IMG/VR virus record: IMGVR_UViG_2703718836_000005
Span: 1 to 25,124 of that record
Origin: a virus
Taxonomy: Duplodnaviria; Heunggongvirae; Uroviricota; Caudoviricetes
Reading direction: 5' to 3' (one strand)
DNA: 25,124 nt
Under the pieces are notes generated by a model, which ran no database searches, had not been told where the DNA came from, and worked only from the letters and a program-made list of their open reading frames with translations. The position numbers and the translations under genes are program-made. This document shows, piece after piece, positions 13,915-17,836 of this stretch (position 1 is the stretch's first letter; each line of letters begins with the position of its first letter).

Positions 13915-14057
13915 CATAAAGAAACATAGGCTAGTAGCGATGAAGTGCGGTAAAAATGGCTAAAACTAGATAAGTAATGGCAATCTGTGCCAATGAGTAA
14001 ATAACACAACCTATTAGATCTGCATTTATTTTTCAAAGGGATCATAATCGCACAGCC

Positions 14058-14084
14058 ACCGGTTCAAGCCCGGTAGGGGACACC
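14058..14084 (+). other. tRNA 3'-end-like fragment (T-arm plus acceptor 3' strand), possible relic of a tRNA gene or integration site
   Basis: ACCGG-TTCAAGC-CCGGT forms a 5-bp T-stem with a canonical 7-nt T-loop, followed by a 7-nt acceptor strand AGGGGAC, a discriminator and CC; no matching 5' acceptor strand or anticodon arm upstream. Confidence 0.3.
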
Positions 14085-14210
14085 TTATTTGGTAGTTGTA
14101 CGGCGTATGGCACATGCGTCGATGAAATCAAAACAGACGATGTTCTGCGTATTTTTGTAGACCACGCTGCATTTGATGTTAGTGGGTTTGATCACTCCTT
14201 AAGTATCCTT

Positions 14211-14642
14211 ATGAACCTTCAGCGTCTGACCGTTCCGTATGAGGCCAGAACGTTGACCGATGACGGATTGGTTACCATTGATCCGGGGAATATTTCGGTA
14301 ACTCCATACAGACGGACGCCGGTACCAGCAACCGAATTTGCAGCTGAATTGCGTAAGAGTGACGTTTTTATCGTTACGCATCCCGAAAGCCTTGGATTAA
14401 CTGTTCTTGAGGCGGCAATGTGTGGGGCGTTGATATTAACGCCGCCAGATTGCCTTCCGCCAGATCGCCTGGCTTTGGTGAACCATATGGTTATCAAGTC
14501 GCGGATTGATTGGGATGAGGTTATTGCTCGCGTTGATCGCGTGAAAAATGCTGAAAAGGTCCAGTGTCACACCTGGTCGGCAATCGCGGAAAAGATGCTT
14601 GAGACGTTTATCACGCAGAAACCGTCGCGAGGTAACAGATAA
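14211..14642 (+). pseudogene. 5'-truncated glycosyltransferase gene fragment (GT4-like C-terminal region)
   Basis: Translation contains VFIVTHPESLGLTVLEAAMCGALIL, the family-typical E-x7-E motif near the C terminus of GT1/GT4 enzymes, with no N-terminal domain; the frame is open upstream to 14001 and runs through the tRNA-like fragment. Confidence 0.45.
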
Positions 14643-14665
14643 AAACATTGTACCCGTGGTAACAG

Positions 14666-14689
14666 AAAAGCCCGAGTGCCGGGCTTTTC
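14666..14689. terminator. bidirectional intrinsic terminator
   Basis: AAGCCCG-AGTGC-CGGGCTT with an A-run on one side and a T-run on the other; sits between the convergent gene ends at 14642 and 14690. Confidence 0.6.

Positions 14690-17836
<3,147 letters not shown>

Follow-up and report, generated by a model that had tools for sequence, protein, structure and literature searches.

We analyzed a 25,124-nt stretch of viral DNA (IMG/VR record IMGVR_UViG_2703718836_000005, positions 1 to 25,124; hereafter, the window), which by its sequence is a P1-like phage-plasmid. At 14042-14085 lies the 3′ half of a tRNA gene. We believe that this half-tRNA is the target-side remnant of the P1 gene trnI, at the int-proximal junction of a prophage related to coliphage 186: a 186-type phage would have integrated into trnI, and a deletion would have followed. 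We put the probability of this reading at roughly 85%. To map the window onto P1, we used blastn against a segment (L001) of the P1 genome, NC_005856. The features of the rearranged region, which we refer to as the scar, are:

12501-12516: left deletion junction, where the P1 backbone is joined to integrase codon ~250; the microhomology is AGGGC(G)CGG, and roughly 7 filler nt are present (from comparing three sequences: the window, P1 L001 2125-2205, and 186 int from codon 245 onward)
12517-12554, + strand: integrase remnant, part 1 (186 Int residues ~251-263; by tblastn, residues 252-263 match at 12519-12554, with FSDCYGAFRSAL aligned to FIDCYGAFWAVL)
12555-12720: miniature inverted-repeat transposable element (MITE) of the IS630 family, 166 bp, inside the integrase remnant, with a TA duplication (12553-12554 and 12721-12722) in a CTAG target (alignment with chromosomal copies)
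12723-12955, + strand: integrase remnant, part 2 (186 Int residues ~264-332, the catalytic C-terminal region; tblastn E = 1e-15 to 2e-16 against the Int of 186, of the Pantoea element, and of an E. coli prophage)
12979-13914, + strand: pPIWI-associated nuclease cargo gene (Pfam pP_pnuc_1 and pP_pnuc_2, E = 1e-32 and 2e-33; PADLOC Aga_Nuclease, 2.8e-61)
13915-14041, + strand: int-proximal arm of a 186-type phage attachment site (attP) (alignment with 186 attP and the Pantoea prophage)
14042-14085, + strand: 3′ half of P1 trnI (tRNA-Ile2, anticodon CAU); these 3′ 44 nt are the target side of the att core, with 5 mismatches in 44 to P1 trnI
14086-14121, + strand: native P1 flank downstream of trnI (31 of 36 positions identical to P1)
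14122-14123: junction of a second deletion, GCGTCG/AT/GAAATC, with no significant microhomology (blastn end points and junction sequences)
14124-14642, + strand: dbn′ pseudogene, the C-terminal 172 codons of dbn (residues 161-332 of the 332-amino-acid P1 Dbn, or P7 Glt; 97.5% nucleotide identity to P1 dbn)

The tRNA fragment includes a T-arm (ACCGG at 14058-14062, the loop TTCAAGC at 14063-14069, and CCGGT at 14070-14074). Next come the acceptor 3′ strand (AGGGGAC, 14075-14081), the discriminator (A, 14082), and CC (14083-14084). A first-pass annotation of this DNA had described a T-arm and an acceptor 3′ strand without a 5′ half, which is what we find. The annotation placed the start of the fragment at the T-arm, which is too late: the match to trnI begins at 14042, with U33 of the anticodon loop, and continues through the anticodon (CAT, 14043-14045), the stem's 3′ strand, and the variable loop. 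After the CC comes a T. In the alignment, only tRNA positions 33-75 are present. The T-arm motif (five Watson-Crick pairs and a TTCRANY loop) occurs once in the window, counting both strands, and averages 0.06 occurrences in 300 shuffles. In a search of a phage collection, 14042-14121 matched P1 trnI and its downstream flank (87.5% identity over 80 nt, E = 1e-19), so the resemblance to a tRNA gene is well beyond chance. Neither ARAGORN nor Rfam (at the gathering score or at E ≤ 1) finds an intact tRNA gene in the window; the same Rfam search scores the three intact tRNAs of P1 at 64.7-74.5 bits. This silence is expected, because only half of a tRNA is present. The remnant has also decayed: an acceptor pair is broken by one change, and CCT stands where the terminal CCA was, with the final A lost. 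The half-tRNA cannot fold into a tRNA.

The 36 nt that follow the half-tRNA are 86% identical to P1, which is above all shuffles, versus 64% identical to the P′ arm of 186. This flank is present in P1-like replicons and is essentially unmatched in E. coli chromosomes (13 places in 5426 genomes), and this near-absence excludes an origin from the host chromosome.

Coliphage 186 integrates into the tRNA-Ile genes ileY and ileX (PMC3448106). Just downstream of int, the 186 record annotates three Int arm-type sites (YAYCGCCAYTY), Apl sites, integration host factor sites, and a “truncated tRNA-Ile.” The record also states that 36 bp are shared with the bacterial attachment site (attB) “in the 3′ end of ileY” and that the predicted crossover is CTCATAA, the anticodon loop. 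We aligned the window with 186 attP, a related element from Pantoea (described below), and P1 trnI. The window tracks 186 up to the anticodon loop and tracks P1 from the loop on, so that homology switches from 186 to P1 at CTCATAA, and the att junction is at 14041/14042. The left arm (105 nt) is 68.6% identical to 186, which is above all 200 shuffles, and 53.3% identical to P1, which is the null level. The core (44 nt) has 11 mismatches to the 186/ileY type versus 5 to P1, and its T-stem (ACCGG/CCGGT) is of the P1 type. Across the junction, 13937-14090 matches 186 attP at 70% identity over 165 nt (E = 8e-16). Three sites at positions homologous to the Int arm-type sites of 186 (13932-13942, 13942-13952, and 13954-13964) each have two mismatches to RARTGGCGRTR, in one case via a 1-nt deletion. 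Neither an integrase nor Apl is encoded in the region. In its sequence, 14041/14042 bears the signature of a junction between a prophage and its target, and the target is P1 trnI. Two explanations for the fragment had been offered in the first-pass annotation, integrase-mediated insertion at a tRNA gene or the decay of a phage tRNA gene, and both seem to hold: the tRNA gene is a phage’s own, P1 trnI, and it was probably disrupted when another phage integrated.

The remains of an integrase gene lie upstream of the core, as in 186: they are on the same strand and directly upstream, with the C-terminus toward the core. By blastn, the remnant is 77% identical to 186 int and 82% identical to the int of a 186-like prophage of E. 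coli. Part 2 contains a 1-nt frameshift near 12767 and three in-frame stops. In relatives, the NCBI Prokaryotic Genome Annotation Pipeline (PGAP) labels this gene as a frameshifted “site-specific integrase” pseudogene. The MITE inserted once the integrase gene was truncated or otherwise dispensable.

Between the integrase remnant and the arm is the nuclease gene. The RefSeq records of relatives show a 311-amino-acid open reading frame within 12510-14041 that carries both pPIWI-associated nuclease domains (Pfam). In the window, this gene is broken by a change from GAG to TAG at 13291-13293 (E105*). All five of the relatives that we fetched have G at 13291. Either the cargo gene has been inactivated in this plasmid, or E105* is a sequencing error.

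Other phages of the 186 group have the same layout. When we scanned GTDB genomes with the nuclease protein, we found one relative (85% amino acid identity), in a metagenome-assembled genome of Pantoea (locus L008, contig DJJQ01000023). This element encodes CI, a full-length Int (97.9% amino acid identity to the Int of coliphage 186), and the nuclease homologue, and then has ACTCATAATCGCTTGGTCGCTGGTTCAAACCCAGCAGGGGCCACCA, which is a tRNA-Ile 3′ half. Window positions 12706-14090 align continuously to it, with 73% nucleotide identity, and the alignment ends at the tRNA's 3′ end. In two IMG/VR contigs (L100 and L101), a homologue of the nuclease gene comes directly after the gene for a full-length 186-type Int. 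The att core that follows in L101 is joined to an unrelated, host-like flank. A 186-like prophage in an E. coli chromosome, beside ypjC (on the ileY side; L010), has the same order of int, cargo, arm, and core, with a different cargo gene. In L008, L100, and L101, the nuclease gene is thus placed between a full-length 186-type int and the att core, and we conclude that the interval between int and attP is a cargo slot in this phage group. No match to the nuclease gene was found in the INPHARED phage set.

We also noticed that in the Pantoea contig, the att core is followed by about 55 nt (L008 5368-5425) that resemble the P′ arm of 186, including its terminator. The result is an attP-like arrangement inside a contig of 149 kb; possible causes are tandem elements at the tRNA site and the joining of a phage genome into the metagenome-assembled genome.

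Overall, the window shares with coliphage 186 (Eganvirus) the order of int, cargo slot, arm with Int arm-type sites, and a core made of a tRNA-Ile 3′ half, as well as the position of the crossover. The left arm is homologous to the arm of 186 attP, and the integrase remnant is homologous to the C-terminus of 186 Int. The differences are that 186 targets the chromosomal gene ileY, while the target in the window is trnI, which is borne by a phage-plasmid; that the cargo of 186 is Orf69 instead of a pPIWI-associated nuclease; and that in the window just one junction survives, everything else of the prophage, including its integrase and arm sites, having been deleted or having decayed. Reportedly, tRNA-gene-associated islands and prophage remnants with a displaced 3′ tRNA fragment form a general class. 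Such islands have the displaced fragment at the distal edge and an integrase gene inside, as in the window. The window departs from those islands in that the intact tRNA copy expected at the opposite end was deleted and in that its host replicon is a temperate phage in its own right.

The history that best fits these observations begins with a 186-like temperate phage that carried the nuclease gene between int and attP. Its tyrosine integrase would have inserted it into the trnI gene of a P1-like plasmid, with strand exchange in the 7-nt anticodon loop CTCATAA; trnI would have served as a close homologue of the usual targets, ileY and ileX. Judging from the left junction, a single deletion would then have run from 55 nt upstream of trnA to around codon 250 of the integrase gene, at 8-9 nt of microhomology. 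(The P1 backbone stops at 12509, which is 55 nt upstream of the position of trnA.) This deletion would have taken the reciprocal junction, about 30 kb of prophage, trnA, trnT, plp, upl, tciABC, and the 5′ half of trnI. What was left has decayed, as seen in the frameshift, stops, and MITE in int, the two mismatches in each arm site, and the loss from the trnI half of an acceptor pair and the terminal A.

A second deletion, of 2093 bp, brought the 3′ part of dbn to 38 nt after the end of the tRNA. It corresponds to 71046-73138 of P1 (NC_005856) and includes the region upstream of ban, ban itself, the annotated dbn promoters (which lie inside ban), and dbn codons 1-160. This deletion is independent of the att junction, and 36 nt of the native trnI flank lie between the two junctions. 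The first-pass annotation had proposed a recombination scar, and there is one; it comprises two independent junctions (14041/14042 and 14122-14123). The scar region is inert: it has no activity of its own and is not a working element. The only functional leftovers are likely the P1 terminator and, in relatives, the cargo gene.

To see how widespread the scar is, we compared 12400-15400 to other sequences using megablast. Phage P1, P7, and their relatives align only rightward of 14124, with 97-98% identity. Among plasmids, there were 600 matching records, which are mainly from E. coli and are mostly non-mobilizable, and 24 of the 600 are colinear across the entire 3 kb. We count the scar block in 24 plasmids in PLSDB, 18 complete genomes of E. 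coli, and four contigs from IMG/VR. About 4% of the P1-like plasmids that match the queries we used have the scar. Both junctions are identical, base for base, in all five of the relatives that we fetched, which suggests a single ancestral event. We found no trnI fragments with just the left side, which would be a sign of independent events, among the matches listed.

Several observations weigh against our interpretation. The reciprocal junction is absent from the window, and a search of PLSDB with a synthetic version (the 5′ half of P1 trnI, the 186 core, and the P′ arm) found none: it returned only pJIE250_3, which has an ileX-type trnI allele, and no record covers the junction. Similarly, when we compared 186 Int to plasmids (tblastn), none of the matches listed that have a full 186-type integrase is an obviously P1-like plasmid. 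Because we found neither a reciprocal junction nor a P1-like plasmid with a complete 186-like prophage, the integration step is something that we infer and have not observed. The integrase remnant is more diverged from 186 Int than are the intact integrases of the Pantoea element and of the two IMG/VR contigs, which implies that the true donor has not been sampled. The recipient may be an unsampled relative of P1 as well: the trnI remnant and its flank are just 86-89% identical to any sampled P1-like trnI, whereas dbn′ is 97.5% identical to P1. This divergence could be due to drift after inactivation or to a divergent, unsampled allele of the ban operon, whose leader is likewise only 90-94% identical. 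Finally, the switch from 186 to P1 lies inside the longest block that is identical between the 186 core and P1 trnI (ACTCATAATCGC, 12 nt), so recombination at short homology would yield the same sequence.

This last point leads to an explanation without any integrase. P1 trnI might have recombined illegitimately, or via short homology, with the tRNA-like core of a phage or prophage similar to 186 (such as one sitting at ileY), and a second illegitimate event would have formed the left junction. Besides the 12-nt block that is shared by both partners, the left junction is itself an example of microhomology-mediated joining at this locus. But this scenario requires two independent illegitimate events, one of them exactly in the annotated crossover region of 186, right beside the cognate int in its proper orientation. 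A single deletion after site-specific integration is the simpler account, and we consider the integrase-free route to be unlikely. It is much less plausible still that trnI simply decayed, with an internal deletion that took its 5′ half and unrelated DNA that was inserted there, with no tie to tRNA-targeted integration. P1-like plasmids are mosaic, and this locus does have other deletions and IS or MITE insertions. However, the DNA that abuts the anticodon loop is homologous to the arm of 186 attP and has int upstream, which is very unlikely to be a coincidence, and the same arrangement of arm and core is found in intact 186-like elements.

The remaining alternative is that the fusion of the half-tRNA to dbn′ is functional. 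The first-pass annotation had the same reading frame running from the tRNA piece into the C-terminal E-x7-E region of a GT4-like glycosyltransferase that lacks its N-terminal domain. The truncation is right, as only residues 161-332 of Dbn are encoded, and the open reading frame aligns only to those residues of the 332-amino-acid protein instead of aligning from end to end with a family of short proteins. The frame is indeed open from 14001 to 14642, across the tRNA piece, and the EX7E motif is present (ESLGLTVLE, at 14385-14411), but the two parts are not fused as a coding unit, with 36 nt of flank between the junctions. Translation of 14001-14642 would give a glycosyltransferase C-domain with a tRNA-encoded N-terminus; alternatively, a 143-amino-acid product might be made from the ATG at 14211. 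As well as the open frame, this idea could draw on the differences between dbn′ and P1 dbn, which affect 13 of 519 nt (9 synonymous and 4 non-synonymous codons; 97.7% identity at the protein level). However, that pattern is most likely older than the truncation, and by our rough estimate, the chance of 41 stop-free codons is around 0.14, which is not unusual. The ATG at 14211 is the first possible start (ATG, GTG, or TTG) in this frame, we found no Shine-Dalgarno sequence upstream of that ATG and no promoter-like site in 13800-14800, and the dbn promoters are deleted. PGAP treats this stretch as a pseudogene (in RefSeq records of relatives, it is a “glycosyltransferase, incomplete, missing N-terminus”), and one sub-lineage (L003) has replaced the end of dbn′. 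When the N-terminal domain is missing from a GT-B enzyme, so is half of the catalytic cleft. We find it hard to credit that the fusion functions. With no promoters, no start codon, and none of the first 160 residues, dbn′ is a pseudogene.

Even for the full-length protein, the glycosyltransferase activity is putative. The homologue of dbn in P7 is named glt, for a putative glycosyltransferase. Compared to P1 Dbn or P7 Glt (putatively of the GT4 type), dbn′ has kept the EX7E motif and a weak match to Glycos_transf_1 (PF00534; 25.5 bits, E = 1e-5, with a cut-off of 26.4), and full-length Dbn is also just below the cut-off. A search by sequence found no relative of dbn′ in the PDB.

We can now place the scar in the backbone of P1. 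In the P1 record, the gene order is dmt, Oban, trnA, trnT, plp/upl, tciABC, trnI, ban, and dbn, and then the convergent tail genes 5, 6, 24, 7, 25, and 26. Comparison with P1 by blastn divides this part of the window, along with a native hairpin, into:

9133-10845: 3′ end of dmt, homologous to P1
10846-12174, + strand: segment with no P1 counterpart, which is an IS200/IS605-family element with TnpB only (open reading frame 10959-12134, 391 amino acids; NCBIfam guided_TnpB, 347 bits)
12175-12509, + strand: leader of the ban operon, the backbone upstream of trnA, 90-94% identical to P1 L001 1712-2154; the last P1 DNA before the foreign segment
12510-14041: segment with no P1 counterpart, which is the 186-like remnant (1532 bp)
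14042-14121: 3′ half of trnI and its flank, 87.5% identical to P1
14124-21397: 3′ part of dbn through pmgP, 98.8% identical to P1, without interruption
14664-14690, both strands: native P1 hairpin of 11 pairs between the convergent genes dbn and 5, terminator-like on both strands, inside the continuous 98.8% block

Compared to the ban operon of P1, the order and sequence of the backbone are alike on both sides (dmt and the leader to the left; the 3′ part of dbn and genes 5, 6, 24, 7, 25, and 26 to the right). The window lacks all three tRNA genes, plp, upl, tciABC, ban, and the first 160 codons of dbn, and it has the 1532-bp 186-like remnant instead. It additionally has the IS605-type element, which is inserted upstream. 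That element splits the homology to P1 cleanly (L001 1711 corresponds to 10845, and L001 1712 to 12175), just downstream of Oban/Pban, and 335 bp of P1 backbone separate it from the foreign segment. It is an independent insertion into the backbone and is not part of the scar. Some of the scar-bearing relatives have the TnpB element and others do not (it is absent from L005 and L007).

These boundaries differ from those in the first-pass annotation, which had a variable region running from the insertion sequence to a bidirectional terminator at 14666-14689. Relative to P1, the variable segment is 12510-14123. The hairpin is real and folds on both strands (−21.4 kcal/mol with z = −3.3 on the + strand and −20.3 kcal/mol with z = −2.6 on the − strand), but it does not mark a boundary, as it lies within uninterrupted homology to P1. 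A simple terminator scanner missed it, probably because the scanner counted the A/T extension as part of the stem, which left no T tail.

In the sub-lineage represented by NZ_LC511659 (L003 5211-6432), a 1.2-kb segment stands in place of window positions 14609-14708, which hold the terminator and the final 34 nt of dbn′. On its minus strand, this segment has two hypothetical coding sequences (233 and 130 amino acids). The interval between dbn and gene 5 is thus a second variable spot.

The inverted repeat of the MITE has the consensus AATAGCTGCGCC (AATTTCTGCGCC at the left end in the window) and is flanked by C-TA and TA-G; CTAG, with duplication of TA, is what we take to be the target of IS630. 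The MITE does not encode a transposase. The same inverted repeat terminates full-length IS630-family elements in many prophage contigs from IMG/VR, and these encode a 343-amino-acid transposase (NF033545, 258 bits). We considered whether 12552-12723 might be a structured RNA, as RNAalifold predicted a closing stem and some compensatory pairs, but the “closing stem” is the IS630-family inverted repeat, which makes this a MITE. Also, in the two chromosomal loci that carry copies, Rfam gave no match to the element. A possible second, attL-like copy of the core was rejected as well: the 10-mer GGTAGGGGAC recurs at 12648-12657, but this is inside the MITE and is not conserved in other copies of it, so we attribute it to chance. 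Related copies of the MITE (~75% identical) are found in CP4-57 of E. coli K-12, in the interval from yfjH to intA, and beside the tail-fibre genes of another prophage. The element occurs in about 900 E. coli genomes (the median number of copies among these carriers is one), and there is a shorter derivative of roughly 100 bp (L094).

In the P1-like plasmid pJIE250_3 (NZ_MN510445; L013 5066-5141), trnI is intact and has flanks of the P1 type, but its 3′ half and nucleotide 26 belong to the host ileX or 186-core type. This allele could have arisen by gene conversion from a host tRNA gene, or it could be the footprint of a 186-like integration that was resolved by recombination between cores.

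Elsewhere in the window, the partition genes at 1412-3585 are unlike those of P1: parA is only ~65% identical to P1 parA at the nucleotide level, against 95-96% for gene 23 and repA-dmt on either side. At 48.9 kb, the closest plasmid, CP057803 (IncFIA+IncY), has about half the length of P1. The replicon of the window is probably a defective derivative of P1. In the leader of the ban operon, 12175-12267 (P1 NC_005856 ~68850-69000, which is tandemly duplicated in P1) gives a weak match to a transfer-messenger RNA model (RF04321, 26.9 bits for the window and 24.1 bits for P1). The match comes from the stretch GCAAACGAUGAUCUGAUGAUGGUUGCGGCCUAA, which would encode ANDDLMMVAA*, similar to the SsrA tag ANDENYALAA. 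It is below the threshold and may be a coincidence.

The mechanism that we propose is textbook tRNA-targeted integration followed by deletion, as for 186 at ileY and for tRNA-associated islands; this is natural history and not a new principle. What is different from the known cases is that the target tRNA gene is carried by another temperate phage. In the literature that we searched, whose coverage was incomplete, we found no published description of a 186-type integration into P1 trnI. The proposed history would explain, base by base, how one lineage of P1-like plasmids lost three tRNA genes, tciABC, ban, and half of dbn, as well as where its extra nuclease gene came from. For annotation, it implies that the half-tRNA, the int fragment, and dbn′ are remnants and that the 1.5-kb block is derived from a 186-like phage. 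It would also be a specific instance in which a tRNA gene borne by one phage was the landing site for another temperate phage, and so one route by which accessory or defence genes reach phage-plasmids.

A broader idea, which we regard as tentative and on balance doubtful, is that the tRNA genes of P1-type phage-plasmids are real attB sites for 186-type integrative phages. If so, one temperate phage would lodge in another and be carried along, either in plasmid form or inside P1 virions; after deletion, its cargo would stay behind, in this case a nuclease gene that is associated with prokaryotic Argonaute (pAgo). Defence genes would thereby pass from integrative phages into phage-plasmids by a site-specific route, one that may still be in use where trnI alleles are intact.

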